From: Candidatus Latescibacterota bacterium
GTDB lineage: Bacteria; Latescibacterota; UBA2968
Direction of reading: 5' to 3'
Assembly (NCBI GenBank): GCA_965116885.1
Contig: OZ220741.1
Location: 1,888,001 to 1,952,000 of the forward strand
Length of the DNA stretch: 64,000 nt
Part shown: positions 45,139-64,000 of the stretch, in pieces
Numbering within the stretch: the stretch's first letter is position 1
Layout of the letters: each line of letters starts with the position of its first letter
Notes under the pieces: model-generated
What the model saw: only the letters and a program-made list of their open reading frames with translations
Told to the model about the DNA's origin: nothing
Database searches by the model: none
Translations under genes and position numbers: made by a program

Positions 45139-45326
45139 CTGTTAAGGTTTCGCTACTGACTTTTCAAGTGCTTTTATTTTTTTCAAAGTTGTGGAGATGC
45201 TGAGCGGATTCCGTCAGTTTAATCAACCTCTTGTGGCCTGATAATTATTATTAACCTAAATTATTAAGAGAAATACTTATGATCAGATTGCAACCGTAAA
45301 CACAATTCATTGCAATAGGAGGGTCA

Positions 45327-46007
45327 ATGGACAAGCAGCAAATTTTGATTGTAGATGATGAACCACTGGTAATATCAGAGCTTGTAGGATTTTTGAGAGA
45401 TGAACCTTATGAGATATTCACCGCGAGAAATGGGATAGAAGGTTTTGAAATTTTAAGAAAAGAGGAGATCGCCCTTGCCGTCGTCGAGATGAAGATAAAG
45501 GATATGGATGGAATAACGCTGTTGAAGCGTGTGAAGGAGGAGAAAATTCAAACGGTTATGCTGATCATGACAAGTTCGGGGAACATGGAATTGGGCGCGG
45601 AAGTGATCAAGGCTGGCGCAGTGAGTGTATTTGATAAACCGATAGAAAAAGATGTGTTTTTGGCGAAGGTCAAAAAATATATACCTCTGCAAGATATTTG
45701 GAAGACCTGGTTGGAATCATTTTTGGAGGCTAATTACAGCAATCCAAAGCTGAGATTTGAAGATGTCATGGGTCATTTCAGGTTCTCGGAAAGCTATGGA
45801 TATAAATTGTTTAAGAAGCACCTGGGAATGTCATTCCGGATGTGCCTTCGGAATGTACGCCTGACAAAGGCTGAGGAAGCGTTGAAGAACACATCATATA
45901 CCCTTTCAGAAATTGCTTGCCTGTGTGGGTTTGCATCTTTATCGACTTTTAGCAAGGTTTTCAAAGAGACGTATGGGGTTAGTCCGACCACATATCGAAA
46001 AAAGTAG
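45327..46007 (+). CDS. Receiver-domain + AraC HTH transcriptional regulator
   Basis: ILIVDDE receiver (Glu at the apparent phospho-acceptor position, AVVEMK); EIACLCGFASLSTFSKVFKETYGVSPTTYR. Confidence 0.92.
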   Translation: MDKQQILIVDDEPLVISELVGFLRDEPYEIFTARNGIEGFEILRKEEIALAVVEMKIKDMDGITLLKRVKEEKIQTVMLIMTSSGNMELGAEVIKAGAVSVFDKPIEKDVFLAKVKKYIPLQDIWKTWLESFLEANYSNPKLRFEDVMGHFRFSESYGYKLFKKHLGMSFRMCLRNVRLTKAEEALKNTSYTLSEIACLCGFASLSTFSKVFKETYGVSPTTYRKK

Positions 46008-46098
46008 CGACTGGAACAAATTTTTGCAGGTTAGGACAAACTTTCGGGCTTGGAACTTAAGAGCAATCAAATCATATTATCATCCACATCACAAAAAA

Positions 46099-46135
46099 GC
46101 TGCCGACAGACCCTAACAGGTCGAGTGTCGGCGGT
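46099..46135 (+). repeat. Leader hairpin motif, copy A
   Basis: GCTGCCGACA-GACC..GGTC-GAG-TGTCGGCGGT. Confidence 0.85.
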
Positions 46136-46220
46136 AAGCAGCATCTTGAGTTATAAGAGAACCCTTGCACATTCAAAAGATAGTGTTGATGAGAATAATC
46201 GGATCCGAGCGGATAACACA

Positions 46221-47567
46221 ATGGCTATAACAGAAAGAGAGCTTCTGGAAATTGCCGATTCCAGACAGATGCTGAAAGAAAAAATCGCATCGCACGAAGC
46301 GCGGATAGCGGTGATGGGATTGGGGTATGTGGGATTGCCTTTATCTGTGGCATTGGGCAAGGTGGGATTTTCCGTCACGGGAATCGATACATCGGCGCGC
46401 AAAGTAGATCTGGTGGAATCGGGAAAGTCCGATGTGCAGGGTGTATCGGAATTTGAAGTAGCAGGTCTCAAAGCTGTGGGAAAATTGACAGCAACGCGAG
46501 AATGCGATGTGCTCAATGAGGCCGATGTGATTGTGGTATGCGTGCCCACACCTTTAAATAAAACACGCGACCCGGATGTCTCGTTTATTTTGCAAGCATG
46601 TGGTGCAATCAAAGACCGACTGCGCTGCGGACAACTGGTGATTTTGGAGAGCACGACGTATCCAGGGACGACCCATGAACTGGTATTGCCCCTGCTCGAA
46701 GAAAGTGGCTTGAAAGTTGGTCGAGATTTTTTTCTGGTATTTTCTCCAGAGCGCGTCGATCCGGGCAATAAAGTTTATACCATCACCAATACGCCCAAAG
46801 TCGTGGGGGGTATTACCCCGTCTTGCACAGAAATAGGCACGCATTTTTACCGGCAATTGATCGGCGAAGTCGTACCGGTCTCATCAACCCAGGCTGCTGA
46901 AATGACCAAGTTGCTCGAAAATACTTTTCGCAGTGTAAATATCGGCCTGGTCAATGAAGTGGCACTGATGTGTGATCGCCTGAGGGTGGATGTTTGGGAA
47001 GTAATCGATGCCGCAGCGACCAAGCCGTTTGGGTTTATGCCGTTTTATCCCGGTCCTGGGTTGGGCGGGCATTGTATCCCGGTTGATCCGCACTTTCTGG
47101 CCTGGAAGCTCAAGACCTTGAATTACAATGCGCGCTTTATCGAATTGGCCAGTGAAGTCACGCGCAGTATGCCGGGCTATGTGGTCGAAAAAATCACCGA
47201 CGCACTCAACGAATACGAGCGGTGTTTGAAAGGCTCGAACATCCTGATATTGGGCGTGACGTATAAACCCGATGTGCGCGATATTCGCGAGTCGCCGGCA
47301 TTGGATATTATAGAAATGCTTCAGGAGAAAGGGGCGAAAGTCTCGTATTGCGATCCGTTTGTAGATCACTTGCAGACAGAAAATTTGGACTTGAAGAGTA
47401 CCTCTTTAAACAAAAAAAATATAACAGAAGCCCATTGTATGGTGATTGTGACGCATCACAGCGATTGGGATTATGAATGGGTCGTAAAGCACGCACGTTG
47501 TATTGTCGATACGCGCAATGCCACGCAGGCTGTATCTGGAAACAAAGATCACGTCTTTAAACTATAG
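46221..47567 (+). CDS. UDP-N-acetylhexosamine 6-dehydrogenase (WbpA/WecC-type)
   Basis: GLGYVGLP, CVPTP, ESTTYPG, SPERVDPG, KLLEN, GGHCIPVDP. Confidence 0.92.
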   Translation: MAITERELLEIADSRQMLKEKIASHEARIAVMGLGYVGLPLSVALGKVGFSVTGIDTSARKVDLVESGKSDVQGVSEFEVAGLKAVGKLTATRECDVLNEADVIVVCVPTPLNKTRDPDVSFILQACGAIKDRLRCGQLVILESTTYPGTTHELVLPLLEESGLKVGRDFFLVFSPERVDPGNKVYTITNTPKVVGGITPSCTEIGTHFYRQLIGEVVPVSSTQAAEMTKLLENTFRSVNIGLVNEVALMCDRLRVDVWEVIDAAATKPFGFMPFYPGPGLGGHCIPVDPHFLAWKLKTLNYNARFIELASEVTRSMPGYVVEKITDALNEYERCLKGSNILILGVTYKPDVRDIRESPALDIIEMLQEKGAKVSYCDPFVDHLQTENLDLKSTSLNKKNITEAHCMVIVTHHSDWDYEWVVKHARCIVDTRNATQAVSGNKDHVFKL

Positions 47568-47625
47568 CATTACAAGATTGCGCTTCTCCAGTCCAATCCT
47601 CGACAGATCACCTGACTAATTTGGG

Positions 47626-48627
47626 ATGCTACCTTTGAAGATTCTATTTGATATTCTCCACGTTGCACATCTTAATTTTTTCAAGTCAGCCATCGAATCG
47701 TTGAAGGCCAGACACGATGTGTCGGCTGTTGTCAGGCAAAGAGGTAATCTTGTTGCCATAGCGGAGTCAGATCTCCCTTGTTCCTTTCGTGTAATGGGCG
47801 CTCATAGAACTGGTGTTAGAAAGATGGTTGGGGTATGGGAAAGGGTCGTTGATCTCAAGAAGATAGTATGCGAAATGGAGACAGATGTTTTGGCGAGTTG
47901 TGGATTCTATTCGGGCATAGTTTCGCGGTTTTGTCGCGTGCGGTCTGTGATTTTTTATGACGACTTCGAATACAAGCTAAATTTTTGGCCGTGTCTTTTA
48001 TTTGCTCATCAACTTGTCTTACCTGAAGCACTCGGAGCGGCAGGCAGAAACATCATTCAATACAAGGGGTTCAAAGAGTTGGCTTACTTGAACCGATTTG
48101 TCCCGCAACCGAAGATTTTAGGTGGGTATGGCGTTCAGCCAGGAGAGTATGTTTTCGTCAGGTATGTTGCACCTATCAGCATGAACTATCGACGCCTGGG
48201 TCAGAAAGAAGTTACGCAAGCGACCAATGCGATTTTAAATACTGGAATGATCATCATAGCCTCCCTTGAGCGGGGAATAAATCTCGAATTCGAACACCCC
48301 AATTTCCGAAAGGTTGTTGAACCTTGTCCCAGTATCCATTCCCTGATTTACTATTCAGCCCTGGTGGTAACTACTGGAGATACTGTTGCAAGGGAAGGCG
48401 CTCTCTTAGGAGTGCCTACTATCTATCTTGGAAGAAGGGAAATGCGCATAAATCGAGAATTAGTCGAGTGTGGACAATTAATAATCCCTGATCCTGGTGA
48501 GGCGACTAAAGAAATATTGGCAAATCTTAGCAATAGAGTTCCGCGAGTCAAACCTGAGAATAAAAAGTGGGAAGACACAACGGAGGTCATTGTCTCCTGT
48601 ATTGAGCAACAGAAATTCACAAAGTAG
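47626..48627 (+). CDS. DUF354-like GT-B fold protein
   Basis: ILFDILHVAHLNFFK, YKGFKELAYL, GDTVAREGALLGVPTI. Confidence 0.75.
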   Translation: MLPLKILFDILHVAHLNFFKSAIESLKARHDVSAVVRQRGNLVAIAESDLPCSFRVMGAHRTGVRKMVGVWERVVDLKKIVCEMETDVLASCGFYSGIVSRFCRVRSVIFYDDFEYKLNFWPCLLFAHQLVLPEALGAAGRNIIQYKGFKELAYLNRFVPQPKILGGYGVQPGEYVFVRYVAPISMNYRRLGQKEVTQATNAILNTGMIIIASLERGINLEFEHPNFRKVVEPCPSIHSLIYYSALVVTTGDTVAREGALLGVPTIYLGRREMRINRELVECGQLIIPDPGEATKEILANLSNRVPRVKPENKKWEDTTEVIVSCIEQQKFTK

Positions 48628-48768
48628 TTTTGTCCGATATCAGATGATATTGGATTGTCCGGCAAATGGTAATTCAATCTGGTAAATATAGATTTGATGC
48701 GATGAAAATATTGGGATAATCAATCGGGATTAGGATTGATGTAGGTATATGGAAGGTAAGGGTGCAGG

Positions 48769-50139
48769 ATGAAAATTTGTGTGGTTGGTTTGGGCCATGT
48801 TGGCACTGTGAATATTGCCTACTTGCTTGAACGAGGTCATATCGTCACAGGCATGGATGTCTCCCAGGAGAGAATCCGCCATCTTTTTGCCGGTGAGCCT
48901 GAACCAGAACCCCGCGTAAGCGACCTGCTAAGTTCAGCACTTAGAAGTGGGAGGCTCCAGCTTTCGACTGACTACTTCAAAGCCGTTGAGGAGGCGAGTG
49001 TAGCGATCATCTGTGTAGGTACTCCGCGAGGTGAGAAAGACGGAATACCAAATCTGAGTTTTCTTTATCAGGCTGTAACGTCACTGGTTGAGATAGTCAA
49101 CAAGAAAAGAGGTACGTTTGACGTCGTTCTGCGCAGCACTGTTCCGCCCGGGACGACGCGTGATATCGTCTCTGGAGCCTTCGGGAATTTTGGCAATGTC
49201 TGGTATTACCCGGAGTTCTTGAGAGAAGGAAGCGCAATGGAGGACATGAATGATCCCCCGATTCGGATCGTTGGTGCTCCAAAGACTGGTTATTGTCAGC
49301 GCGTGTTAGATATTTACGGTGAGGCTGGGCCGGTGTACATTACCGAATACGAAATAGCTGAAATGGTAAAGTATGTATGCAATGCTTTTCATGCTATGAA
49401 GGTTACTTTCACGAATGAGATATCGAATATTTGTAGATATCTCGGGATAGACAGCAATAGAGTAATGGAAGTCGTGTGCTCAGACAACAAGCTCAATATG
49501 TCAAAAGCCTATATGAGGCCGGGATTCGCATTCGGAGGATCCTGTCTTCCAAAGGATCTTACAGCACTCCTGCGGCTATCGAACGGACGACAAGGACCTG
49601 AATTGCCTCTGCTGACCAATATCATCGTCAGTAATGATCTTCACATCAAGTCCACGGTCAGGAGGGTAAGGTCACTTGCCGTTCGAGGAACATTGGGTAT
49701 GTTGGGTTTGAGTTTTAAGCCCAATACAGGCGACTTGAGGGATAGTCCGTTCGTAAAACTCGGAAATATGCTCATCTCAGAAGGGTATCATGTGATCGCA
49801 TACGACCCGTCAGTGGAGTTGGGTTTCCTGGACGTAGAGCAGACTTATATTCAAAGCGATGCCAGAGAGATGTGGCAGGGACAATTGACCAGATCCCTCA
49901 ATTCGCTGTGTGAGTGTTCCCTGCTGTTGATCGCACATCCCATTTCCTCATTTCCTACACCGATTTTACCCATCTTGAAGGGCAAGCACGTTCTTGATTT
50001 GTGCAACGATCCTTTGCGAGAGCAAATCGCTGCTATTGCTGACTATGAAGGTGTGGGCTGGGAATGCCGTTCAGGATGTGTTCGGAATGTCAGCTTAGCA
50101 AAGGCTGAAGAAGCGTTAAAGAACACATCATATTCATAA
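48769..50139 (+). CDS. GDP-mannose/UDP-glucose 6-dehydrogenase family protein with foreign C-terminal tail
   Basis: GLGHVG, CVGTP, RSTVPPG, PEFLREGSA, FGGSCLPKD, EGVGW followed by an AraC-derived tail. Confidence 0.9.
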   Translation: MKICVVGLGHVGTVNIAYLLERGHIVTGMDVSQERIRHLFAGEPEPEPRVSDLLSSALRSGRLQLSTDYFKAVEEASVAIICVGTPRGEKDGIPNLSFLYQAVTSLVEIVNKKRGTFDVVLRSTVPPGTTRDIVSGAFGNFGNVWYYPEFLREGSAMEDMNDPPIRIVGAPKTGYCQRVLDIYGEAGPVYITEYEIAEMVKYVCNAFHAMKVTFTNEISNICRYLGIDSNRVMEVVCSDNKLNMSKAYMRPGFAFGGSCLPKDLTALLRLSNGRQGPELPLLTNIIVSNDLHIKSTVRRVRSLAVRGTLGMLGLSFKPNTGDLRDSPFVKLGNMLISEGYHVIAYDPSVELGFLDVEQTYIQSDAREMWQGQLTRSLNSLCECSLLLIAHPISSFPTPILPILKGKHVLDLCNDPLREQIAAIADYEGVGWECRSGCVRNVSLAKAEEALKNTSYS

Positions 50140-50143
50140 AAAA

Positions 50144-50219
50144 GCCGCCGACAGACCCTGGCAAGTCGAATGTCGGCGGCAGACTGCAGTTCAAAGCTCA
50201 AGCATTTGGGAATGTGAGC
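50144..50219 (+). repeat. Two-hairpin leader motif, copy B
   Basis: GCCGCCGACA..TGTCGGCGGC, GCAGTTCAAA linker, GCTC..GCATT-TGGG-AATGT-GAGC. Confidence 0.9.
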
Positions 50220-50248
50220 TTGATGATTTAAGATACCTCAGGTGCCCC

Positions 50249-51070
50249 ATGTACCAATCTCTAAAATCTCTCAACTATCTTCGAAAGAAGGTAGCGGTTA
50301 CAACATATAGACAATGGAGTAATCGGTGGCGATGTCTTCCAGACTATTTACTCATTGGCGCTCAAAAATCTGGAACTACGTCGCTGTACAAATATCTGGT
50401 TTCACACCCCGAAGTCCATCGGTGCTTGAAAAAGGAGGTTGGTTACTTTGACCAGCATATCAATAGGGGATTGGCGTGGTATCTTGCTCATTTCCCGATC
50501 AAGGGTTCTGCGGGATTTCAGCAAGTAACTGGCGAGGCAACGGCTGAATATTATTATTTGCCACAAGTGCCCCAAAGAGTACTCTCGGTTGTACCTCAGG
50601 CTAAGTTAATCATACTGTTAAGAAACCCCTTAGAAAGAGCACACTCTCATTATTGGCATCTTTTTAATACAGGCCGCGAGCGAAGACCTTTCGCGAAAGC
50701 AGTTGAAGACGAATTACGTCTTTTGAGCACCGATAGTCATCTCATGAAAATAGGATTCAGTGGCAGTCCTGGCTATGTTGCTCGGGGAATGTACTCCAGG
50801 CATTTGAAAAGGTGGTTAAGTTTGTTTCCGGAGCGTAATTTAAGAGTACTTATTTCAGAAGATTTTTTTTCCAAACCGGCTGTTGGTTACAACGAGATAA
50901 CAGATTTTCTGCAGGTGCGCAGACACCTGCCTGAGGCGTTCAAGGTTTACAACTCTGCAGCCTATAAGACACCCATGCCCAATCGCACAAGAGAGATGCT
51001 GATTGAGTTCTATCATGGCGTTAATATGGAACTGTCTAATTTGCTCGGACGCCGTGTCCCATGGCCATAG
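50249..51070 (+). CDS. Sulfotransferase (heparan-sulfate O-sulfotransferase-like)
   Basis: LPDYLLIGAQKSGTTSL, KEVGYFD, GEATAEY, LRNPLERAHSHY. Confidence 0.92.
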   Translation: MYQSLKSLNYLRKKVAVTTYRQWSNRWRCLPDYLLIGAQKSGTTSLYKYLVSHPEVHRCLKKEVGYFDQHINRGLAWYLAHFPIKGSAGFQQVTGEATAEYYYLPQVPQRVLSVVPQAKLIILLRNPLERAHSHYWHLFNTGRERRPFAKAVEDELRLLSTDSHLMKIGFSGSPGYVARGMYSRHLKRWLSLFPERNLRVLISEDFFSKPAVGYNEITDFLQVRRHLPEAFKVYNSAAYKTPMPNRTREMLIEFYHGVNMELSNLLGRRVPWP

Positions 51071-51164
51071 TGAGTATGTCTTAAAAGGCTCGCGGCTTGT
51101 GTTCACGATTACACATTTGGTGGATAACGAGAAATTGAAGAGGTAAGCGTGCTATCATGAAAAA

Positions 51165-51240
51165 GCCGCCGACAGACCCTGGCAAGTCGAGTGTCGGCGG
51201 CAGACTGCAGTTCAAAGCTCAAGCATTTGGGAATGCGAGC
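51165..51240 (+). repeat. Two-hairpin leader motif, copy C
   Basis: Differs from copy B at only two positions. Confidence 0.9.
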
Positions 51241-51304
51241 TTAATGGTAAGATAGCTTTTGGTGGGTAGGTTGTCAACTATCGTGTAACTGGATATAAAA
51301 ATTT

Positions 51305-51598
51305 ATGAAGAAAAACACAGTAACAATATCTGAGATTGAGAATCAGATTCAAGGTTTGGTTCTGAAGGCATTAGACTGTGAAGCCTTATCTGATGATATA
51401 GATTGGGACAATCTTCCTCTGGCTTCTATACTCGATTCTATTTCCACTCTGGCCCTGGTGACAGGCTTAGAGGATGCATTTGATGTAATCGTAGAAGACG
51501 AAGAACTCACAGAAGAGATGCTGACTTCGACACGTTCGGTAGCACAGTATATATATGAGAAATTAACCACTGATACACATTCACTTGTTCCCGAATAG
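51305..51598 (+). CDS. Acyl carrier protein-like
   Basis: Acidic 97 aa; LDSISTLALVTGLEDAFDV contains the phosphopantetheine-site Ser. Confidence 0.85.
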   Translation: MKKNTVTISEIENQIQGLVLKALDCEALSDDIDWDNLPLASILDSISTLALVTGLEDAFDVIVEDEELTEEMLTSTRSVAQYIYEKLTTDTHSLVPE

Positions 51599-51636
51599 AT
51601 CAATACCATGAACTAAACACTGCGAGAGGTTTTTTG

Positions 51637-53541: not shown

Positions 53542-53572
53542 GATCAAGACCTCAAGGATAGGGAGAAAGTAA

Positions 53573-54295: not shown

Positions 54296-54340
54296 TATTT
54301 ACGAACAAGATGTGGCAGGGCAAAAAGATTGATATAAATA

Positions 54341-54422
54341 GCCGCTGACAGGCCCTGGTGAGTCGAGTGTCGGTGGTAGGGCGCAACAGCAGTTCAAAGT
54401 CCAAGCATTTGAGAATATGAGC
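54341..54422 (+). repeat. Two-hairpin leader motif, copy D
   Basis: GCCGCTGACA..TGTCGGTGGT, GCAGTTCAAAG, AAGCATTTGAGAAT. Confidence 0.85.
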
Positions 54423-54522
54423 ATGAGAGCCTGATTTTACTTGAAGCCCATCAAGTAAAGAGTCGCTTATACGCACGCAGGTCCATGCAGAATATGACTC
54501 AAAAAGTAAAGGAGGTGATACT

Positions 54523-54738: not shown

Positions 54739-54843
54739 CCTCAATTATCAATGCCGGCTCATTTTGGTGTGAAGAGGTATTCGATTGCAACGAATGCTGA
54801 TCCGTGGCTGTCGTTTAAAAAGCGAGCTTGATGGGCTTCAAGT

Positions 54844-54887
54844 TTGGATCGGTGTTCTCGGTAAACAGGCTTGGAACACCGATCCAA
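54844..54887 (+). other. Strong 3' hairpin after precursor 1
   Basis: TTGGATCGGTGTTC/GAACACCGATCCAA 14-bp stem; repeated after precursor 2. Confidence 0.8.
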
Positions 54888-54912
54888 CGATAAATAATAA
54901 GGATTATCATTA

Positions 54913-56019: not shown

Positions 56020-56120
56020 TAGCGAAAGTCAACTCGTTGAGCATCTCTATCATCACTATTTTCAATGATTAATCCGACGACATTTTTCACGGGTATTCTT
56101 CGTTTATATCACGGGTGAAT

Positions 56121-57890
56121 ATGAAGGACAAACAACAAGTCATATCAGCTATTTCCAATATCTCTAAGCAGAGACACGTCTTTTATCATTTTTTGAAATT
56201 TCTAAGACCGTATTGGATACACGAAAGCATTGTTTTCGTCCTCATGATTTTAGGGACCGTTAGCTCGCTGGCCTTTCCCTATATCATGAAAATTATTATT
56301 GATGACGTGTTTCCAAACAAAGATTATGAACTCTTGATATTTATTTTGCTTCTGCTCCTGGGCATTACAGTAGGCAATATCATTATTAGTTTTTGTTCAA
56401 ACTATTTATTTGCCTGGATAAAAAATCGCGTTATGCTGGATATAAGAAGCCATCTTTTTGACCACTTAATCCAGTTGCCATTGAGCTTTTATGATCGCAA
56501 TAAATCTGGGGATATTGTTTATAGAATGAGCAACGAAGTTGATAGAATACAGTCGTTTATCACTTCAAGTGCTTTGAGTCTTGTACATAGCTTGCTGACA
56601 CTCATAGGGCTTACTGTGGCTCTCTGCTGGTTGAACTGGCAGCTATTTTTGGTTTCTATTATTGTAATACCTTTTCTGGCACTCAATATTCGCTACTTCC
56701 AGCCCAAGATAAGAGATATTACGGAACGAGGACGAAAGAAAGGCTCTGAAGTTATGAGCTATTTGATTGAGCGATTTGAGACTGTCCAATTGATTCAGGT
56801 CTATAATGCCTATCATTACGAAAACAATAGATTGTGGTCGCAGCTAAATGATCTCCTGAGTATCAATATGCAAAATGTAACCTGCTCTGGAGCTATGAGG
56901 TCCATTTCGAGATTTTTAACGTCATTGACGCCTGCAATCATTCTGGGATGGGGAGGGCATAAGGTGATGTTGGGGGTTATGAGCCTGGGGGCATTGGTTG
57001 CTTTTTTGCAATACCTGTCGCGCCTTTTTGCACCATTTAGAAATCTCAACCGCCTTTATATCGCCCTCATCCGTGTATCTGTTTCAATGAAACGAGTATT
57101 CGAATTTCTCGAGATTGATGTTCAGAAAATAACAGATGGGTCTGCCGCCAGTCCGTTTTCTTTTCAAAAGGAGATTGCGTTCACCAACCTCAATTTTGGA
57201 TATAATGGACAACCCGTTTTGCAGGACTTCAGTTTAAGACTGGAGAAAGGAAAAAAATATGCTCTGGTGGGGTCAAGTGGTTGTGGCAAGAGTTCATTAG
57301 TAAATGTACTGTGTCGTTTTTATGACTTGAATACAGGTGTGATTACTATTGACCATACACCGATTACCGATATCAAGCTGTATGATCTGAGAGAGCATAT
57401 TGGTCTGGTAACCCAGGAGAATCAAGTTTTTCATGATACAATCTGGAATAATATCCGATACAGCAAGCTGGAAAGTACGCCTGAAGAAATCAATCGAGCG
57501 ATCAGCATAGCTGGTTTGAATGAATTTATTGAGAGGGCTGAAGATGGTGCGCTTACGCTTATCGGTGACCGAGGTAACACACTGTCGGCTGGACAAAGGC
57601 AGCGTATTGCTATTGCGCGTGCAATTTTGAGAGACTCGGATATTCTGATCCTGGATGAAGCTACGTCGGCACTGGATTCTGAAAGCGAAGGTGAAATTAT
57701 AGCAAATTTACAGGATCTATATGAAAATAAGACGATGATTGTGATTAGCCACAGACTCAGCACGATCCAGCAGGTAGATGAGATTATTTGCTTGGATGAG
57801 GGGAGAGTTGTGGAGCAAGGAGCACATGAGGAGTTGATGGAGAAGAAGGGGTATTATTGGCGTCTTTTTCGCAAGCAACTTATCGCATAG
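56121..57890 (+). CDS. ABC exporter, fused permease/ATPase (no C39 peptidase domain)
   Basis: TM domain, GSSGCGKS, LSAGQRQR, ILDEATSALD, ISHRL. Confidence 0.95.
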   Translation: MKDKQQVISAISNISKQRHVFYHFLKFLRPYWIHESIVFVLMILGTVSSLAFPYIMKIIIDDVFPNKDYELLIFILLLLLGITVGNIIISFCSNYLFAWIKNRVMLDIRSHLFDHLIQLPLSFYDRNKSGDIVYRMSNEVDRIQSFITSSALSLVHSLLTLIGLTVALCWLNWQLFLVSIIVIPFLALNIRYFQPKIRDITERGRKKGSEVMSYLIERFETVQLIQVYNAYHYENNRLWSQLNDLLSINMQNVTCSGAMRSISRFLTSLTPAIILGWGGHKVMLGVMSLGALVAFLQYLSRLFAPFRNLNRLYIALIRVSVSMKRVFEFLEIDVQKITDGSAASPFSFQKEIAFTNLNFGYNGQPVLQDFSLRLEKGKKYALVGSSGCGKSSLVNVLCRFYDLNTGVITIDHTPITDIKLYDLREHIGLVTQENQVFHDTIWNNIRYSKLESTPEEINRAISIAGLNEFIERAEDGALTLIGDRGNTLSAGQRQRIAIARAILRDSDILILDEATSALDSESEGEIIANLQDLYENKTMIVISHRLSTIQQVDEIICLDEGRVVEQGAHEELMEKKGYYWRLFRKQLIA

Positions 57891-57893
57891 GGA

Positions 57894-58403
57894 ATGGAAC
57901 TGGTGAGTTTAGAATTTCGCAATCCTGACATAAAATTAATTCTCCTGCGTGTATTGGTCATCCAAGTTTTGGGAATAGGCACAGGATTGATTTATACTGT
58001 TATTTTTAGTGAACAGCTTTTGTTCGGCGAGGTTGAAACCTCTGAAAAACAAGATGATATAACGTATGTCTCTTTAGAAGTTCTTCAAAATATAATTCAT
58101 TCGAAATCAAAAATATTACTCATCGATGGGCGTTCTGAATCTGCTTATCACAGAGGCCATATTCCAGGGGCTGTGAACATACCGTATATTCAGCGCGATT
58201 ATTTTTTTCGTCAGCTTTTGGCTGATGTTGCTCGTGAGACCCTAATAATTGTCTATTGTTCTGGCAAGAATTGTAATATCAGTGTCAAATTGGCGAGGTC
58301 TCTATCAGGGGAATTTGGATTTATACATGTTCGAGTTTTTGAGGGAGGATGGGAGGAATGGGTAAAGGGAAAAAATCCGATCCAAACGAGTTTTGACAGA
58401 TGA
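57894..58403 (+). CDS. Membrane-anchored rhodanese-like protein
   Basis: LIDGR, GHIPGAVNIP, IVYCSG, FEGGWEEW. Confidence 0.88.
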   Translation: MELVSLEFRNPDIKLILLRVLVIQVLGIGTGLIYTVIFSEQLLFGEVETSEKQDDITYVSLEVLQNIIHSKSKILLIDGRSESAYHRGHIPGAVNIPYIQRDYFFRQLLADVARETLIIVYCSGKNCNISVKLARSLSGEFGFIHVRVFEGGWEEWVKGKNPIQTSFDR

Positions 58404-58867
58404 TTATACCTGCTAAATTAGCCTGGACAGGAACCGTAGTCCGGATATTTCTGGGACTTATTCTCGGATGGGCCGGGGTTGTAAAAATCCGTAATCCGAA
58501 AGCATTTATTGAAATTGTTAAAGCCTACAATTTGCTACCTGAGGAATTGGTCGTGCTATGGGGGATCTTCTTGCCCTGGATTGAGCTTGTGACAGGTTTA
58601 TTTTTATTTCTCGGTTTGTGGCACAGGAGTGCCGTGCTCAGTTGTTCTGGTCTCTTTTTTGTATTTGCAGCAGCCGTAGGCATTAATATTCTCCGGGGGG
58701 CAGATATCGCCTGTGGTTGTTTTGGGTTCAATGACACCAATTTGTATGTTGTGTTGTTCCAGGACCTGGTTTTCTTGCTTTGCTGTTATTTTTTGGTTTT
58801 TCTAAAATCTACACCTTATTCTCTGGACCATTGCTTTTCTACTTCTCAAAGTGGTGGACTTTCGTAA
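58400..58867 (+). CDS. MauE/DoxX family redox-associated membrane protein
   Basis: RIFLG..AGVVK, LPWIELVTG, CGCFG. Confidence 0.88.
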   Translation: MIIPAKLAWTGTVVRIFLGLILGWAGVVKIRNPKAFIEIVKAYNLLPEELVVLWGIFLPWIELVTGLFLFLGLWHRSAVLSCSGLFFVFAAAVGINILRGADIACGCFGFNDTNLYVVLFQDLVFLLCCYFLVFLKSTPYSLDHCFSTSQSGGLS

Positions 58868-58884
58868 AGTATTCCCTGGCAAAA

Positions 58885-58979
58885 GCCGCCGACAGACCCT
58901 GGCGAGTCGAGTGTCGGTGGTAGCCCCCAGGGGTAGGTTGTAGTAGCAGTTCAAAGCGCAAGCATTTGGGAATGTGAGC
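58885..58979 (+). repeat. Two-hairpin leader motif, copy E
   Basis: GCCGCCGACA..TGTCGGTGGT, longer linker, AAGCATTTGGGAATGTGAGC. Confidence 0.88.
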
Positions 58980-59083
58980 GTGAGAGCATGCATGGTTTTA
59001 CTTGAAGCCCATCAAGTAAGGTGCCTCTTATATGCACGCATATTCATGCAGGATATGACTGAAAAAGTAAAGGAGGTGATACT

Positions 59084-59284
59084 ATGAAAGCTTTGACCAA
59101 GCCGGAGAAGTTTCGATCTATGTCTCGTATCTATGGATATGAGCTACCAGATGATATAATAGGATATCAATGTGAATTTCAAGGCTATACCGATATTGTC
59201 GTAGATGGTGTGGTCGTTGGTCAAACGGAAGATTGGGACTGCGTGAGTGTAGTTGATGAGATATTCGATTGCGACGGCTGCTAA
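59084..59284 (+). CDS. Putative precursor peptide 2
   Basis: Same RBS and leader (MKALTKPEKFRSMSRIYGYEL); different core with 4 Cys ending FDCDGC. Confidence 0.85.
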   Translation: MKALTKPEKFRSMSRIYGYELPDDIIGYQCEFQGYTDIVVDGVVVGQTEDWDCVSVVDEIFDCDGC

Positions 59285-59545
59285 TCCGTGGCTCTCGTTG
59301 AAAAACTAAGGTGTGCTACTGAGCTTGATGGGTTTCAAGTTTGGATCGGTGTTCTCGGTAAACAGGCTGGGGATACCGATCCAACGATAATAGTAAGGAT
59401 TATCATTGGGGATGGCGTAGGCCAGTTGAAGATTGCGATATTCTCGTATCGGAACCGTGTCTTTTATGATACATCAAAAGGACAATCCAATGAACAAGGC
59501 GATATGTAGTTGGCCTGAATTTGATATCGAAGAAGAATTGAACAG

Positions 59546-60199
59546 ATGATTGTGAATGATAGGTTTAAGAGGATCGTTAGGACGATTTTGTGCAAAGTAT
59601 TTAGTCAAGGTATCATTTTTTTAATTTTGATTTTTGGGGGAAGCGGAGTAGTTGCCATTTATGCTTATCCCTTTTTTGCGATAAGTAAACCACTACATGG
59701 CGACATTATGGTCGTAGAAGGATGGTTGCGTGGTGAAGAACTAAGATCGGCATTACAGATTTACAGAGCTGGCAAATACTCTCAGATTGTCGTGACTGGA
59801 GGTCATTTCGCCTATAGCACTGCAACAACTCTTGCCTCAGAATGGCAAATTGATCCCGACCGCGTCAAGGTGGCTGTTCGCGACATGCCGAATGGGAAGT
59901 TTGAGCGAGATCGCACATTTAATTCCGCATTAGGACTTCGTCACTGGCTACTCGAGGCGAATCAAAAAGAAAAAAAAGTTGATATAGTTACGAGAGGTCA
60001 TCATGCCAGGCGTTCGTTTATTTTATTTAAAACCGCCCTTGATGGCGTGGCACAAGTAGGCGTTATAGCTGTTTCCCCCTATAACTACGATCCTGATTAC
60101 TGGTATGATTCAAGTGCAGGGTTCAGGTCGGTTATAGGTGAAATCATCGCCTACATTTATGTAAAACTTATTTTCACTCCTGAGTTTCCCAAAATATAG
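59546..60199 (+). CDS. YdcF/DUF218 family protein
   Basis: MVVEGW, IVVTGG, RTFNSA, VTRGHHARRS, EIIAYIY. Confidence 0.8.
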   Translation: MIVNDRFKRIVRTILCKVFSQGIIFLILIFGGSGVVAIYAYPFFAISKPLHGDIMVVEGWLRGEELRSALQIYRAGKYSQIVVTGGHFAYSTATTLASEWQIDPDRVKVAVRDMPNGKFERDRTFNSALGLRHWLLEANQKEKKVDIVTRGHHARRSFILFKTALDGVAQVGVIAVSPYNYDPDYWYDSSAGFRSVIGEIIAYIYVKLIFTPEFPKI

Positions 60200-60255
60200 A
60201 GAACAATCTAACATTGATCATCAGGTTTTTCTCCCAATAAACGCGATCTTTTCTT

Positions 60256-61533
60256 ATGAGAGGTGTGATTTTGAGAACAGTTTTGATGGTCACACAAAAA
60301 TTTCCCCCTTTTAATGGTGTTGGGGTTCTGCGGGTTACCAAATTTGTGAAGTATATTCAGGATTTTGGATGGCGACCAGTTGTTCTGACTTGCAAACGGG
60401 AAGAAGATCATTTAGACGCTGTGGATGAAAAACTGCTATATGGTGTTCCGGAAGATTTAAGCATTCATCGGGTAAATGCACCTTCCCTGTATGACGTTTA
60501 CAGACAGGTAGGCGGACGGGCAAAACAAGGATCTTTTTCATTGTCTAAAAATTCCTTGGCTTCTTTAATCCGATCTCTATTTGTGCCTGATCAATATGTC
60601 GCCTGGTATTTTACGGGTGTTCGTAAGGCGAAAGAGATTTTCCAGGTGGAGAATATAGACGCGATCTATTCTACATCTCCTCGTGAAACATCTCATCTAA
60701 TAGGAAGAACGCTCCATCTAAAGTATAAGTGTCCCTGGATAGCCGATTTTAGAGATCCCTGGATCGAGAAACAACACCGTCCCAAACGTATCCAGCCTCT
60801 TGAACAGTTCGAGAAGTACTTAGAAAAAATTGTGCTTCGCGATGCAGATTGTATTCTTGCTGCCTGGCCTGGAATTGTCCGAAGTTTTGAGCCTGCTGTA
60901 GAGGGGAAGTCGCAAGTTTTGACAAATGGATTTGATGAAGAGGACTTCAGGGGTCTAAAGCCTCATGTATTCCCCAAATTCACTTTTTTGTTTGCTGGAT
61001 CACTTTTTAAAGAATTGTTTCCCCTACCAATGTTCGAAGCATTGGATGTGCTGCTGCGAACACGTCCAAAACTACGACAAAGAATTCAATTGGTTCTCTT
61101 AGGAAGGCAAGACGCATTTATCCGAGATACGATAAAGAAATACAAGTTAGAATATTGTGTAAATATCATCCCACAAGTACCACACAGAGAATGTTTGCAG
61201 TACATATTAGGAGCTGATGCATTGATTTTTTGTATTCCAGATAAACAGTGTATTCCCAGCAAAATTTTTGAGTATTTAAGAGCCAACCGACCAATACTGG
61301 CAATAGCAGACCAGGATTCAGACGCTGTACAGATTATCGCGCGTGTAAACCCGAGTTTATGTTTAGCAAGCCGAGACCCTGAGCATATAGCACGTTATAT
61401 GTCAAACTTAGTGCGAGATCGCGAGGTTTCGGATTGTGAAATTCAAAACAACAGGCGACTCTGGGAGTTTGAGCGAAGACAGTTAGCAAAACAACTTGCT
61501 CATACCCTCGATACGCTCGTCAATCAGGTTTAG
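60256..61533 (+). CDS. Glycosyltransferase family 4
   Basis: FPPFNGVGVLR, WIADFRDPW, TNGFD, PSKIFEYL. Confidence 0.9.
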   Translation: MRGVILRTVLMVTQKFPPFNGVGVLRVTKFVKYIQDFGWRPVVLTCKREEDHLDAVDEKLLYGVPEDLSIHRVNAPSLYDVYRQVGGRAKQGSFSLSKNSLASLIRSLFVPDQYVAWYFTGVRKAKEIFQVENIDAIYSTSPRETSHLIGRTLHLKYKCPWIADFRDPWIEKQHRPKRIQPLEQFEKYLEKIVLRDADCILAAWPGIVRSFEPAVEGKSQVLTNGFDEEDFRGLKPHVFPKFTFLFAGSLFKELFPLPMFEALDVLLRTRPKLRQRIQLVLLGRQDAFIRDTIKKYKLEYCVNIIPQVPHRECLQYILGADALIFCIPDKQCIPSKIFEYLRANRPILAIADQDSDAVQIIARVNPSLCLASRDPEHIARYMSNLVRDREVSDCEIQNNRRLWEFERRQLAKQLAHTLDTLVNQV

Positions 61534-61536
61534 GAA

Positions 61537-62220
61537 ATGGGCCGTTTGAATAAAATGTTAAAAGTGCTGTGTGCCCTGAGTTTTCTCATAATACTCTTAC
61601 CGCTCGTGATTCTGGGTATCATATTGATCTGGATAGAGACTCGGGATAGATGCTTGTTCAAGCAAGTCCGGGTGGGGAAAAATTTGAGAACCTTTACCAT
61701 TTATAAACTTAAAACAATGATTGACCGTAAAAAAACAGATCAAAATGATCTCTTTGTAGATAAGGAAAAATATACGACAAAAAGCGGACATTTGCTCAGG
61801 ATGTCAAAAATTGACGAAATACCGCAACTTTGGAATATCATCAAGGGGGATATGGATTTTATAGGTCCGAGGCCGATTAGAGAACCACTACACAATTTTT
61901 ATATGAAAAATATCCCAAACTTTGAACGCCGATACCAAACGTTACCTGGCCTTACTGGTATCTCTCAAATTGTTGATCCTGAGAATACAGATCGCAGTCT
62001 CGGCCTGGCTTGTGACTGTTACTATATCAATAACAAATCTGTGAAACTCAATGTCCAGATCATTGTATCGACGGTCGTATATTTGATGTACAGTCTATCA
62101 CGAGAGATTTACAACTGGACAACTACAAGATGGCTCAGGTGTATCAATGTGGAAAATATCCCCAATATTCAAGCTGATAATTTGCAGCATATGAGTTTGT
62201 CAAAATGGAAACGTCAATGA
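61537..62220 (+). CDS. Bacterial sugar transferase (priming phosphoglycosyl transferase)
   Basis: FKQVRVG, YKLKTM, DEIPQLWNIIKGDM..GPRP, PGLTG. Confidence 0.9.
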   Translation: MGRLNKMLKVLCALSFLIILLPLVILGIILIWIETRDRCLFKQVRVGKNLRTFTIYKLKTMIDRKKTDQNDLFVDKEKYTTKSGHLLRMSKIDEIPQLWNIIKGDMDFIGPRPIREPLHNFYMKNIPNFERRYQTLPGLTGISQIVDPENTDRSLGLACDCYYINNKSVKLNVQIIVSTVVYLMYSLSREIYNWTTTRWLRCINVENIPNIQADNLQHMSLSKWKRQ

Positions 62221-62221
62221 A

Positions 62222-63331
62222 ATGAAAACAGTGATCAGTGATATTGAATTCTATCGGCCTGCACAAGGTAAATCGAAACATATGGTTTGCAGTAGTACTT
62301 TCTTGAACATTTTGGCCTATCACAATCCATTTTTTAAAAAACCTATCCTGTACGATCTGCTGAGAGTTGGGTGGACATTTTGGTATTCTCCCAAAAAGAG
62401 AAGACTGAGCTCAATGTATGCAACAAATGGCTTTTTATTTAATTTGAGTTCTCTGTTTTCTGTAAACGCGGAGTCCATATTCTGCTCGGACTTAAGTCAC
62501 TTTAGAGCGTGTTTGAGAGAGCGACTTATTGAAAAACGCCCATTATATGTTAATCTATCCGGGGCGCCCGTTTTGATAGGAAATGAGCTTAAGTTCATAG
62601 ATCTACAACTAAAACATTTCACGTATGTTGTCTTTGGTTTCGACAGCAAAAATGATACTGTCTTACTTTTGACAAACGAAGCTTCAAAGGTGGGTTGGGC
62701 ATCAGTTTCTGAGGTTGCGAGCAGGCTTAAGAGAAATGAAATTGTAGATTTTATGAATCCTTTAGACTTACAGATGCCTGATCAAAAAAAATTTGCGGGC
62801 TTTTTTTTGCGAAAAATAAGAAGCAACTTTAAAACCTGTGCTACAATAGGCACTTTGAGGAGGATAAATCACTATGTATGGGGAAATATTACGAGGAAGT
62901 CTATCCCTATAGATTTACCTCCAGTAAGGATCCTGAGTGGCATAGGAGGTATAGAAAAATTTTCGAAAGATCTCGTACACTTATACGGATTAGAGAAGAA
63001 TGAGATAAACGATTTTTCAAAGCATACATGCCGCAAGATAATAGGATTCCGAGATGAACGAGCGATATTTATGAGGTCGTTATTAGGGTTAGCTCGTTTT
63101 AACAAGAAAGATCATATCATAAAAGAAATTGAACGTCTATCGCAAGATTTAGAACTAACCTGGGTATCTTTGGCTAAATCCTTTGCCAGAGTTTATATGT
63201 CAGAGAAGAAAGATTCTGTAGATCGACTACAGGAAAAATTACTTAATATAAAGAGTCGAGAGAAGGCTCTCCTATTACTGATGCAGGATTTTTTAAAAAA
63301 AGGGGGGTTAGATGGTATTGAATCCTTATAA
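62222..63331 (+). CDS. BtrH-like (papain-fold) protein
   Basis: N-terminal C..T..IL, RPLYV, HFTYVVFGFD, SGIGGIEKF pattern reminiscent of BtrH_N proteins. Confidence 0.5.
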   Translation: MKTVISDIEFYRPAQGKSKHMVCSSTFLNILAYHNPFFKKPILYDLLRVGWTFWYSPKKRRLSSMYATNGFLFNLSSLFSVNAESIFCSDLSHFRACLRERLIEKRPLYVNLSGAPVLIGNELKFIDLQLKHFTYVVFGFDSKNDTVLLLTNEASKVGWASVSEVASRLKRNEIVDFMNPLDLQMPDQKKFAGFFLRKIRSNFKTCATIGTLRRINHYVWGNITRKSIPIDLPPVRILSGIGGIEKFSKDLVHLYGLEKNEINDFSKHTCRKIIGFRDERAIFMRSLLGLARFNKKDHIIKEIERLSQDLELTWVSLAKSFARVYMSEKKDSVDRLQEKLLNIKSREKALLLLMQDFLKKGGLDGIESL

Positions 63332-63398
63332 ATGAATCATTGGAGTTTGGAGTTATTCAATCAGTCTCTATTATTTTCACTAAAAATAGGATTTGACC

Positions 63399-64000
63399 AT
63401 GAAAAAAAAAGTAAAAATAGCTTATATCTTTACACGGTTTCCCTGTTTGACTGAATTGTTTGCTTTACGTGAGGTAGAAGAATTGAGAAGATTGGGAATT
63501 GATGTTCAGCCTTATTCTTTAAACAGGGTGCGGGCAGAAGAGATGCAAGATCCTCTCATGGAATTTTGGTTTGATAAAACCATATATGTTCCTTCTTCCA
63601 CCAGTTTTCAATGTCTTGTATCGCTGCCTAAGATCGGTATTAAGCGCTTTAGAATTTTTTGGGGAGGTCTCATAGTTAAATGTATCTCTGGAAATATACG
63701 AAACTTAAGATACTTGTTTTCTTCGCTTGCAGTATTTTCTCAGGCTACGCATATAACACAAGAGTTAGTAAAAACAAACGTTATGTGGGTCCATGCACAT
63801 TTTGCGACCAATGCTACAACTGTTGCCTGGATAATCAAGCACCTATCGGGTATCCCTTATAGCTTTACACCTCACGCCTATGATATATTCAAACGAGAAT
63901 TCCAAACGGGATTTCTCAAGACAAAGATTCAAGATGCCCATTTTGTTGTTGCGGTCTCTCAATTTAACAAATTTTTCCTTCAAAATTTTAGCGGACAAAA
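63399..64000 (+). CDS. Glycosyltransferase family 4 (WcaL-like), truncated by the window end
   Basis: Frame open to the edge (absent from the ORF track): IAYIFTRFPCLTELFALREV..VHAHFA..YSFTPHAYDIF..VAVSQFN. Confidence 0.88.
   Translation, partial: MKKKVKIAYIFTRFPCLTELFALREVEELRRLGIDVQPYSLNRVRAEEMQDPLMEFWFDKTIYVPSSTSFQCLVSLPKIGIKRFRIFWGGLIVKCISGNIRNLRYLFSSLAVFSQATHITQELVKTNVMWVHAHFATNATTVAWIIKHLSGIPYSFTPHAYDIFKREFQTGFLKTKIQDAHFVVAVSQFNKFFLQNFSGQ

Follow-up and report, generated by a model that had tools for sequence, protein, structure and literature searches.

The closest described counterpart of the gene set reported here is the CLI_3235/CcpM system of Firmicutes (TIGR04065–TIGR04069), and the genes for Qhp/Mau maturation are the next analogue. 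The cluster table of one Paenibacillus study (PMC10731318) lists a Cys-rich precursor, a TIGR04066 protein, an acyl carrier protein (ACP)-related protein, a subtilisin-like protease, an ATP-binding cassette (ABC) protein and a radical S-adenosylmethionine (rSAM)/SPASM protein; our literature search returned no demonstrated chemistry for the CLI_3235/CcpM system. The set studied here occupies positions 45327–64000 of a 64,000-nt stretch (the window) of contig OZ220741.1 from Candidatus Latescibacterota, an uncultured phylum that is noted, in the passage cited, for its biosynthetic potential (PMC9426513). We read it as a mosaic, probably co-regulated set in which a core of the type used for ribosomally synthesized and post-translationally modified peptides (RiPPs), belonging to a large family, has been joined by later-recruited sugar genes, and our confidence in this reading is about equal to our doubt.

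The window has the same part list as the CLI_3235/CcpM system, but all of its scores fall below the family cutoffs. The C-terminal 370 residues of a fusion between an S8 subtilisin and a DUF1611 module match TIGR04066 at 9.7e-35, and because this score (120.2 bits) lies under the cutoff of 200 we regard the module as homologous, not as an equivalog. An rSAM protein encoded upstream matches CcpM (TIGR04068) at 7.4e-50 (170.2 bits, cutoff 500). The window further differs in that its protease and TIGR04066/DUF1611 module are fused in one protein, that neither of its precursors matches TIGR04065 or any other NCBIfam model, and that its ACP gives no match to TIGR04069 at E ≤ 0.01 (a paralogous ACP, from the related locus L025, reaches 29.6 bits against a cutoff of 70). 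Moreover, the rSAM gene lies 8 kb off and is present in only 8 of the 78 loci compared below, and the family of the window adds BtrH-like, redoxin, rhodanese, MauE, propeller and sugar genes.

With Qhp/Mau maturation, the locus and its surroundings share a cytoplasmic subtilisin for trimming the leader of a Cys-rich peptide (in the window a predicted role), an rSAM/SPASM protein, an ABC exporter, an AraC-type regulator, and MauE together with a thioredoxin-fold protein. A precedent of another kind is given by thiotemplated papain-like ligases. As described in the cited sections of PMC12865890, CtaG, BtrH, AsbE and MllDE are such ligases with a Cys-His-Asp triad, which take a carrier-protein-bound donor and form an amide bond; in addition, CcbD uses a carrier protein as the acyl source for an amino sugar in lincosamide biosynthesis, and BtrH uses a carrier-protein-bound donor in the pathway to the aminoglycoside butirosin. 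Like the loci of CtaG, BtrH, AsbE and CcbD, the window combines a carrier protein with a candidate papain-fold enzyme, and the two, encoded in the same locus, are predicted to act as a pair. The candidate Cys, His and Asp residues of the window enzyme have a spacing similar to that of the CtaG variant residues C11A, H128A and D144N, a likeness of positions and not of a direct alignment. Known members are nonribosomal, whereas ribosomal precursors and a leader protease accompany the enzyme of the window; none of the words “RiPP,” “ribosomally” or “subtilisin” occurs in the text of PMC12865890. The window enzyme also departs from CtaG and BtrH in that the sequence similarity is marginal and the commonest subgroup of its family lacks the Cys.

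The sugar genes, for their part, resemble those of Wzx/Wzy polysaccharide loci (a priming Bac_transf protein, GT4 glycosyltransferases and nucleoside diphosphate (NDP)-sugar dehydrogenases), but peptide genes lie among them and the control element of the peptide cluster stands at their head. No flippase, polymerase or export gene was found before position 64000, where the sequence of the window ends, as do those of L001 and L004.

A predicted RiPP core shared by a large family of loci

Proteins of the region were assigned to families by Pfam and NCBIfam profile searches (Table 1). An earlier note, made from the letters of the DNA alone, had named most of these genes, and the searches recovered every one of them, with all sizeable open reading frames (ORFs) from 45327 to the end on the plus strand and the last glycosyltransferase (GT) gene running past the window edge; a full-length homologue of that gene product in L004 matches Glycos_transf_1 at 5e-41. 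The AT-richer composition that the note had described is evident from the GC profile (0.422 for 45327–64000 versus 0.514 for 1–44000), and the same-strand run begins far upstream of 45327, at ~23351. Its AraC regulator does carry the AraC-type helix-turn-helix (HTH), to which a response-regulator receiver domain is also fused (RR-AraC).

The two precursor peptides share the sequence MKALTKP.KF..MSRIYGYE, and the conserved leader spans 20–21 residues (MK.LTKP...IYGYE). In ten aligned precursors M1, K2, L4, K6 and the I-Y-G-Y-E stretch are invariant, as are two Cys residues 8–10 residues apart, while the remainder varies. One or two such ORFs occupy the same place in seven related loci. A large protein collection holds 62 members of the precursor family, 59 of them with IYGYE and with 60 distinct cores among them; C-x6-11-C is present in 58 of the 62, and 44 have 2, 4 or 6 Cys residues. 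This pattern is the usual signature of RiPP precursors under diversifying selection. Other features of a RiPP system accompany the fixed leader and variable core, since an S8 protease and an ABC exporter are encoded alongside and leader cleavage is predicted.

A strong hairpin lies 3′ of each precursor gene. In a 181-nt fold, the hairpin after precursor 1 gives a z value of −3.67, with 0 of 200 shuffles folding as well, and the copy at 59321–59390 is 94% identical to that at 54824–54893. The second precursor lies within a segmental duplicate, 58881–59433, of 54337–55262 with an internal deletion of ~325 nt: identity is 93% over 88 nt and then 85% over 26 nt, the latter 325 nt further into the propeller gene. 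An ORF at 59288–59509 was rejected as a gene, as it consists of the duplicated post-precursor hairpin (59321–59390) and a remnant of the propeller gene (59408–59433).

The S8-DUF1611 fusion has at least 234 relatives of equal architecture, and a genome scan yielded 249 stretches that encode one. Our comparison set consists of 77 of these stretches with 10-kb flanks, mostly from Latescibacterota and labelled L001 onward, in which the longest non-overlapping ORFs were taken as genes and clustered by BLAST, with annotation of cluster representatives and exclusion of singletons shorter than 150 aa; co-occurrence counts across these loci take no account of kinship. The nearest fusion relatives are 88–93% identical and come almost exclusively from Candidatus Latescibacterota metagenome-assembled genomes, and two contigs at ~90% identity with other phylum labels look like binning noise. 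Among the 77 loci and the window, an ABC exporter is present in 58, an ACP-like protein beside the fusion in 50, HlyD in 39, BtrH_N/DUF4872 proteins of two subgroups in 26 and 11, a redoxin in 20 (and one of a second type in 7), a rhodanese in 19, a DUF5128 propeller in 18, a CAAX-type protease in 18, RR-AraC in 17, MauE in 13, AcrB in 13, GNAT in 11 and rSAM/SPASM in 8. A genome can hold up to five paralogous fusion loci with differing accessory genes; contig OZ244847.1 has five clusters (L005, L013, L024, L025 and L035) and OZ242195.1 has three (L007, L027 and L032). In L001, L003, L005, L006, L007 and L009 a duplicated permease of the FtsX/MacB type, ~830 residues long, is encoded between the propeller and ABC genes; it weakly resembles the darobactin export permease and is absent from the window and L004.

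The peptide genes probably form a maturation system that belongs to a large uncharacterized family, in keeping with the earlier suggestion of an undescribed pathway. Literature searches found no paper on the S8-DUF1611 fusion family and none pairing DUF1611 with RiPPs (the DUF1611 papers recovered are unrelated), and a search combining BtrH, RiPP and acyl carrier protein gave nothing relevant. For the DUF1611/TIGR04066 module, only genome-mining mentions were found in print.

The fusion, carrier and BtrH-like proteins

The S8 domain of the fusion starts at residue 1, and because its catalytic Asp is at position 20 neither a signal peptide nor a prodomain can fit before it; the subtilisin is predicted to be cytoplasmic. 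Residues D20, H55, N139 and S199 are invariant in 20 aligned sequences, and the best model for this domain is QhpE, which is the leader protease of quinohemoprotein amine dehydrogenase (1.3e-41; 142.4 bits, just under the cutoff of 165). The DUF1611 match, at 37.7 bits, passes the Pfam gathering cutoff of 25. An AlphaFold2 model of residues 265–635 (predicted local distance difference test score (pLDDT) 89) has the two-domain DUF1611 fold (PF07755/PF17396), for which the best fold matches are 2g0t (E 1e-16), 2obn and 7xrj (TMq 0.59–0.69), with P-loop enzymes such as Mur ligases and MeaB far behind. The 7xrj entry is titled N-acetyltransferase DgcN, and DgcN is a D-glutamate N-acetyltransferase; literature searches on DgcN gave nothing of relevance. 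Protease and DUF1611 module form one polypeptide in 20 of 20 aligned sequences, and 72 of the 79 ORFs of the fusion cluster are full length (≥610 aa), which argues that the two act on one substrate. Complex prediction for the fusion with precursor 1 gave scores of 0.00, 0.48 and 0.00 (mark 0.32), which are informative in neither direction.

The attachment Ser of the ACP is invariant in 51 of 51 family members. BtrH-like proteins accompany the fusion and ACP in 32 of 76 loci, and the ACP and BtrH-like genes belong, across the family, to the peptide core and not to the glycan part. In L022 (12312–15014), and also in L066, L068 and L069, a nonribosomal peptide synthetase (NRPS) protein with peptidyl carrier protein and condensation domains follows the ACP at the usual BtrH-like position, and in L047 (8264–9616) the same position is taken by a PP-binding domain fused to a transglutaminase-core (papain-like) domain. 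Because such proteins occupy the BtrH-like slot, carrier-protein-dependent acyl transfer fits the family.

The BtrH-like protein of the window, encoded between the priming transferase and a GT4 in both the window and L004, has 13 homologues in the large protein collection that are 85–93% identical, none of them with a Pfam label. A BLAST comparison with the BtrH-like clusters of the family gave nothing significant (best E 4.3). Taken alone, the sub-cutoff Pfam match would make the earlier BtrH-like call a weak one; it is reinforced by profile–profile comparison with the BtrH-like proteins of the family (hhalign probability 72%, E 3e-5, 201 columns), by language-model neighbors that are BtrH_N/DUF4872 clusters (score 0.97), by alignment of Cys23, His132 and Asp141 with the Cys-bearing BtrHb subgroup, and by fold comparison. 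In the last of these, a low-confidence model (pLDDT 59) matched only AziU3/U2, CtaG and CcbD (E 1e-5 to 5e-4; 15 matches listed at E ≤ 4.7e-4, 16 by the tool's own count; template modeling scores 0.37–0.45), and the order of secondary structure would fit an N-terminal papain-like and C-terminal helical layout. The earlier proposal of an acylated product gains support from the pairing of an ACP with a BtrH/CtaG-like ligase, and the chemistry itself is put forward here as a proposal.

A repeated leader element precedes peptide and sugar genes

An element of ~100 nt is present in five copies in the window, all on the plus strand (Table 1). A degenerate 25-nt core pattern matches at 46105, 50150, 51171, 54347 and 58891 and nowhere else in the 64-kb window, and 0 of 100 dinucleotide-preserving shuffles contained any match. 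An nhmmer profile gave 37 copies, which come from the window itself and from 17 of the 77 related loci; without exception they are intergenic and on the coding strand. The likely start of dehydrogenase 1 is ATG 46221 and not the listed TTG 46050, because copy 1 falls inside the longer ORF; the Pfam domain begins at residue 85 of that ORF.

In close relatives the element precedes the ACP gene, the precursors, the ABC exporter, or a GT4 or DUF218 gene. The position of copy 3, before the ACP gene, is kept in all seven orthologous loci that hold an ACP (of eight in total, L004 being without it), and other copies lie upstream of the DUF218 gene in L005, L006 and L009 and directly upstream of the GT4 a homologue in L001 and L004. 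Distant paralogous clusters carry a single diverged copy at the operon head, before the RR-AraC gene; neither nhmmer nor inspection by eye revealed a copy before the RR-AraC gene of the window itself. Element and regulator are both present in 14 loci, the element only in 4, the regulator only in 3 and neither in 57 (Fisher p 1.7e-9, kinship ignored). The earlier observation that one leader motif precedes both sugar and peptide genes is true of the window and extends to GT4 or DUF218 genes in relatives, and the sugar and peptide genes are likely to be co-regulated, perhaps as one unit.

The first 40 nt of the element form a hairpin (GCCGCCGACA...TGTCGGCGGC) in which 90.8% of cells are paired across 36 copies, versus 19–53% when the partner strand is slid. 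One pair changes from CG to UA in nine sequences and many pairs are G-U, and because of these changes an RNA hairpin on the sense strand fits. The whole 195-nt leader before precursor 1 is unremarkable as a fold (z −1.42); its first hairpin alone is well supported. A further small, conserved hairpin (TTTTACTTGA...TCAAGTAAAG) lies between the element and the starts of the precursors, at 54436–54520 and 58992–59080; most of the copies that precede precursor or ABC genes in relatives have it, and those before ACP or sugar genes do not. Inspection of the alignment tentatively indicates a −10-like box (TATCAT/TATAAT) 6–8 nt upstream of the hairpin, which gains no support from a consensus promoter scan. 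No Rfam family at its gathering score over the whole window matches the element, and at E ≤ 5 a search of 45000–60000 returned nothing but a chance microRNA match. The sole Rfam match at the gathering score in the window is a tRNA gene at 23130–23203 on the minus strand.

Table 1. Coordinates of the features of the locus, of the leader copies and of the upstream block (positions in the window).
Feature	Position	Strand	Match or remark
RR-AraC: response-regulator receiver with AraC-type HTH	45327–46007	+	Response_reg 8e-21, HTH_18 4e-22
Leader motif copy 1, second hairpin diverged	46082–46172	+	nhmmer 8.9e-19; before dehydrogenase 1
NDP-sugar dehydrogenase 1 (UDP-ManNAc/UDP-GlcNAc dehydrogenase-like)	46221–47567	+	TIGR03026 7.7e-131
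DUF354 (GT-B-like) protein	47626–48627	+	PF04007 3.8e-10
NDP-sugar dehydrogenase 2 (UDP-glucose dehydrogenase-like)	48769–50139	+	TIGR03026 9.5e-92
Leader motif copy 2	50127–50231	+	nhmmer 4.1e-31; before sulfotransferase
3′-Phosphoadenosine 5′-phosphosulfate (PAPS)-type sulfotransferase, carbohydrate kind	50249–51070	+	Sulfotransfer_1 1.4e-14
Leader motif copy 3	51149–51253	+	nhmmer 2.6e-31; before ACP gene
Acyl-carrier-like protein (ACP)	51305–51598	+	PP-binding 0.0032; weak NCBIfam ACP models
S8 subtilisin-DUF1611/TIGR04066 fusion	51634–53541	+	Peptidase_S8 2.5e-23, DUF1611 1.9e-9, QhpE 1.3e-41, TIGR04066 9.7e-35
Membrane-anchored redoxin, CQPC motif	53573–54295	+	AhpC-TSA 1.3e-10, Redoxin 6.5e-8
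Leader motif copy 4	54328–54436	+	nhmmer 2.9e-27; before precursor 1
Precursor peptide 1, 71 aa, 5 Cys, acidic core	54523–54738	+	shared MK.LTKP...IYGYE leader
Strong hairpin 3′ of precursor 1	54824–54893	+	13-bp stem
Six-bladed beta-propeller lipoprotein (DUF5128)	54913–56019	+	PF17170 4.4e-14; lipobox LILGGC
MsbA-type ABC exporter without C39 peptidase domain	56115–57890	+	ABC_membrane 1.5e-53 (from residue 39), ABC_tran 1.1e-30
Membrane-anchored rhodanese	57894–58403	+	PF00581 3.3e-18
MauE/DoxX redox-associated membrane protein	58400–58867	+	PF07291 2.1e-24
Leader motif copy 5	58867–58992	+	nhmmer 4.6e-28; before precursor 2
Precursor peptide 2, 66 aa, 4 Cys	59084–59284	+	leader as in precursor 1
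DUF218 (YdcF/SanA-like) membrane protein	59546–60199	+	PF02698 2.1e-7
GT4 glycosyltransferase a	60256–61533	+	Glycos_transf_1 8e-7
Polyprenyl-phosphate sugar-phosphate (priming) transferase	61537–62220	+	Bac_transf 1.4e-45 (155.5 bits), TIGR03025 1.3e-46
BtrH/CtaG-like papain-fold protein, candidate Cys23-His132-Asp141	62222–63331	+	DUF4872 E 0.0011, below cutoff
GT4 glycosyltransferase b, cut by window edge	63393–64000	+	Glyco_transf_4 9e-6, EpsE 9.7e-15
Upstream small ORF, 60 residues, one Cys, Asp-rich tail	36886–37068	+	
Upstream rSAM/SPASM maturase	37088–38539	+	best models SCIFF, nif11, QhpD, PapB, all below cutoff
Upstream 302-aa protein, methyltransferase-like lead	38543–39451	+	

The sugar genes appear to be variable add-ons

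In four of eight close (orthologous) relatives and in nine of 68 distant loci, sugar genes are found no more than three genes away from the core. The families concerned differ: GT28-like, GT2, GT4 and epimerase-plus-DegT genes are found near the core in the nine distant loci, one of which, L049, has sugar aminotransferase and epimerase genes adjoining the fusion, and in four further loci (L017, L038, L046 and L063) a GT gene stands beside the BtrH-like gene, outside the strict same-strand run. Peptide and glycan genes do therefore co-occur in related genomes, and the view that they never do, which would have spoken against a joint locus, fails. For the hybrid locus as a whole, the interleaving and the shared element put forward in the earlier note stand, and the sugar genes prove to be accessory, two of them being without a homologue in the 77 loci.

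The DUF354 protein is 96–97% identical in L001 and L007 only, where its gene and that of dehydrogenase 2 lie between the rSAM block and the ACP and fusion genes, and GT4 a is 89–92% identical in L001 and L004. In L003, L005, L006 and L009 the RR-AraC gene is followed directly by the ACP gene, with no sugar genes between. Traces of recombination are visible in the window. Motif copies 2 and 3, which bracket the sulfotransferase gene, are 96% identical over 92 nt, and the last ~55 nt of the dehydrogenase 2 gene derive from a fragment of the RR-AraC gene (50081–50133 is 87% identical to 45847–45899). This scar is also present in L001 and suggests that the sugar pair replaced most of a regulator gene before the motif. 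L020 shares RR-AraC (90%) and the motif with the window, and what comes after them there is another paralogous cluster. The sugar genes are variable add-ons, probably acquired by recombination at copies of the element.

Among solved structures, the sulfotransferase comes nearest to heparan-sulfate glucosamine 3-O-sulfotransferases and to the NDST sulfotransferase domain (E 4e-24). Because a heparan-sulfate-type sulfotransferase occurs with two uronic-acid-forming dehydrogenases, an acidic sulfated glycan is indicated. Tyrosine sulfation, considered for the acidic Tyr-rich cores, was set aside, as the nearest solved relatives are carbohydrate sulfotransferases, in a search that included no comparison with a peptide tyrosine sulfotransferase. 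Two sulfatase genes are also present in the window (18035–19432 on the minus strand and 24458–25927 on the plus strand), and with the heparan-sulfate-type sulfotransferase in the same window the organism may both make and degrade sulfated glycans.

The upstream rSAM block and other neighboring genes

A block at 36819–39451 begins with a sigma-54-type promoter (TGGCACGGTTCTTGCA) before a 60-residue ORF and continues with genes for an rSAM/SPASM maturase and a 302-aa protein. In L001 and L007 the rSAM gene (then the 302-aa gene in L001) directly precedes the DUF354, dehydrogenase 2, ACP and fusion genes. The genes at 36886–39451 are probably associated with the cluster and may be its start. We rejected an assignment of the rSAM protein as an anaerobic sulfatase maturase, for which it scores 115 bits, versus 266 bits with peptide-maturase models.

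A 1590-residue regulator with Ser/Thr kinase, AAA, TPR and GAF domains and a sigma-54 activator module is encoded at 31801–36573, just upstream of the sigma-54 promoter. Homologues of this activator occur upstream of the rSAM gene in other loci, directly in L055 and L056 and with short ORFs between in L001 and L007. Between the rSAM block and RR-AraC, at 39623–43510, two genes encode a 635-aa protein with a tyrosinase domain and a 600-aa patatin-like phospholipase; L020 retains the patatin gene, without the tyrosinase gene.

Proposed pathway and alternative explanations

Taking each step from the functions of the protein families, we infer a pathway in which RR-AraC would turn on the units headed by the shared element, which would itself be a 5′ leader with a conserved hairpin in its first 40 nt. 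In the cytoplasm, the S8 domain would cut the leader at or near IYGYE and the DUF1611 module would load or handle a group on the ACP, from whose thioester the BtrH/CtaG-like ligase would transfer the group to an amine, forming an amide bond. The ABC exporter would then carry the peptide out, and the redoxin, MauE and rhodanese would set a disulfide between the two conserved Cys residues. The sugar genes, which would have joined this regulon at a later stage through recombination at element copies, would most likely supply a uronic-acid-containing sulfated glycan, either as the amine acceptor or partner of the ligase or as a co-produced surface polymer. The most far-reaching form of this proposal is a covalent conjugate, in which a ribosomal disulfide-bridged peptide and a sulfated uronic-acid glycan are joined by the carrier-protein-dependent papain-like ligase, and this we consider unlikely.

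Several points weigh against the mosaic reading or the steps proposed for it. No sugar gene lies close to the core in 59 of 68 distant loci or in four of the eight close ones, none of the 77 loci encodes a homologue of the sulfotransferase or of dehydrogenase 1, and the priming transferase points to a lipid-linked polymer rather than to direct peptide glycosylation. The gene calls in related loci are crude, and with close relatives 88–93% identical the shared gene order may be plain inheritance. No adenylating ligase, ATP-grasp protein or other recognized acyl-activating enzyme is encoded in the window, and loading of the ACP by DUF1611 is therefore a guess; moreover, the one characterized DUF1611 relative among the fold matches bears the label of an N-acetyltransferase and not of a ligase. 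The BtrH-like assignment is a weak one, with its Pfam match under the cutoff, its hhalign probability of 72% and a poor model in which the N-terminal half has a pLDDT below 50. Because that model has an overall pLDDT of 59, its fold matches are fragile and serve as a lead only, and the larger BtrHa subgroup is without the Cys. As for the element, covariation is modest (3 double-change pairs versus a shuffled mean of 2.4, among copies that are related), and a sigma-70-type scan of 44900–64000, which also covered intrinsic terminators, placed no promoter at any motif copy and returned fewer sites overall than it did on shuffled sequence. Several copies start 0–1 nt after the upstream gene or overlap it, and therefore the element could work inside a long transcript and not as a promoter.

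A rival account is adjacency: a bacteriocin-like peptide cluster would have come to lie beside a locus for exopolysaccharide or capsule and been interleaved with it by recombination, with products that never meet chemically and with the element as a shared promoter or a locally spreading repeat. This is possible, although we do not expect it to be correct. It suits a distribution in which sugar genes appear in only half of the eight close relatives and few of the others, with sulfotransferase and dehydrogenase 1 genes unique to the window among the loci compared; it suits equally a carbohydrate-type sulfotransferase, the combination of a priming transferase with GT4 proteins that is typical of lipid-linked polysaccharide loci, and the recombination scars and duplicated motif copies, which show cassettes moving in and out. 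What adjacency does not readily explain is that the BtrH-like gene, a family partner of the fusion and ACP, is placed between the priming transferase and a GT4, that distant paralogous clusters have members of three unrelated GT families as immediate neighbors of BtrH-like, ACP or fusion genes, that the DUF354–dehydrogenase pair of L001 and L007 sits between the rSAM block and the ACP and fusion genes, and that sugar genes of the window, L001 and L004 have the element at their head. This element could also be a nonregulatory REP/MITE-like repeat or a recombination site that came to lie between genes by chance. Its copies do mark cassette junctions, and it has neither an Rfam match nor a consensus promoter. 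However, all 37 copies are on the coding strand, none occurs in the other 45 kb of the window, diverged copies retain the hairpin through compensatory and G-U changes, and the distant paralogous clusters hold their one copy at the operon head before RR-AraC, all of which makes such a repeat improbable.

If the pathway were instead centered on the glycan, the ACP, DUF1611 module and BtrH-like ligase would serve to N-acylate an amino sugar in the glycan. For the peptides, processing by the S8 protease and separate export would be all that happens. BtrH and CcbD, as described for butirosin and the lincosamide amino sugar in the cited sections of PMC12865890, are precedents for this, with CcbD among the fold matches, and the BtrH-like gene does sit among GT genes, just as sugar aminotransferase and epimerase genes adjoin the fusion in L049. 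However, loci that hold ACP and BtrH-like genes mostly lack sugar genes altogether, and the joining of protease and DUF1611 module in one polypeptide (20 of 20 aligned; 72 of 79 ORFs full length) argues for a common substrate, leaving this scheme a slim prospect. More remote still is the possibility that the locus matures a small Cys-rich subunit for a quinoprotein-type dehydrogenase in place of a secreted peptide. It is suggested by the best model of the S8 domain (QhpE), by matches of the rSAM protein to QhpD (5.7e-75) and of the AraC part to QhpR (2e-11), and by the presence of MauE and the redoxin. Yet the bit scores lie under the cutoffs (142.4 of 165 for QhpE, 252.7 of 453 for QhpD and 43.5 of 250 for QhpR), no large subunit of a dehydrogenase, nor any family of the QhpABC structural genes, was matched by Pfam or NCBIfam in 22 ORFs of the region and 17 upstream, the precursor cores are hypervariable (60 distinct among 62 proteins), and up to five paralogous loci occur in one genome, all of which set the locus apart from Qhp/Mau maturation. 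We retain the mosaic of a RiPP-type core and recruited sugar genes as our working interpretation, at the confidence given at the outset.

Implications

If the core works as proposed, it would join the chemistry of ribosomal precursors and leader proteases with that of thiotemplated papain-like amide ligases, which have so far been studied apart, and would give the first functional handle on the DUF1611/TIGR04066 module. The repeated leader is a candidate for a new cis-regulatory RNA that may mark where cassettes, a heparan-sulfate-type sulfotransferase among them, plug into an existing regulon. Were the covalent conjugate to exist, a Latescibacterota-like organism would be the maker of a bacterial molecule akin to a proteoglycan, whose peptide part is hypervariable, and a new 5′ leader RNA together with an RR-AraC regulator would switch the whole regulon. 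For the family as a whole, the combination of an unchanging leader with hypervariable cores suggests that diversifying selection is strong, as in bacteriocins or host-interaction factors.

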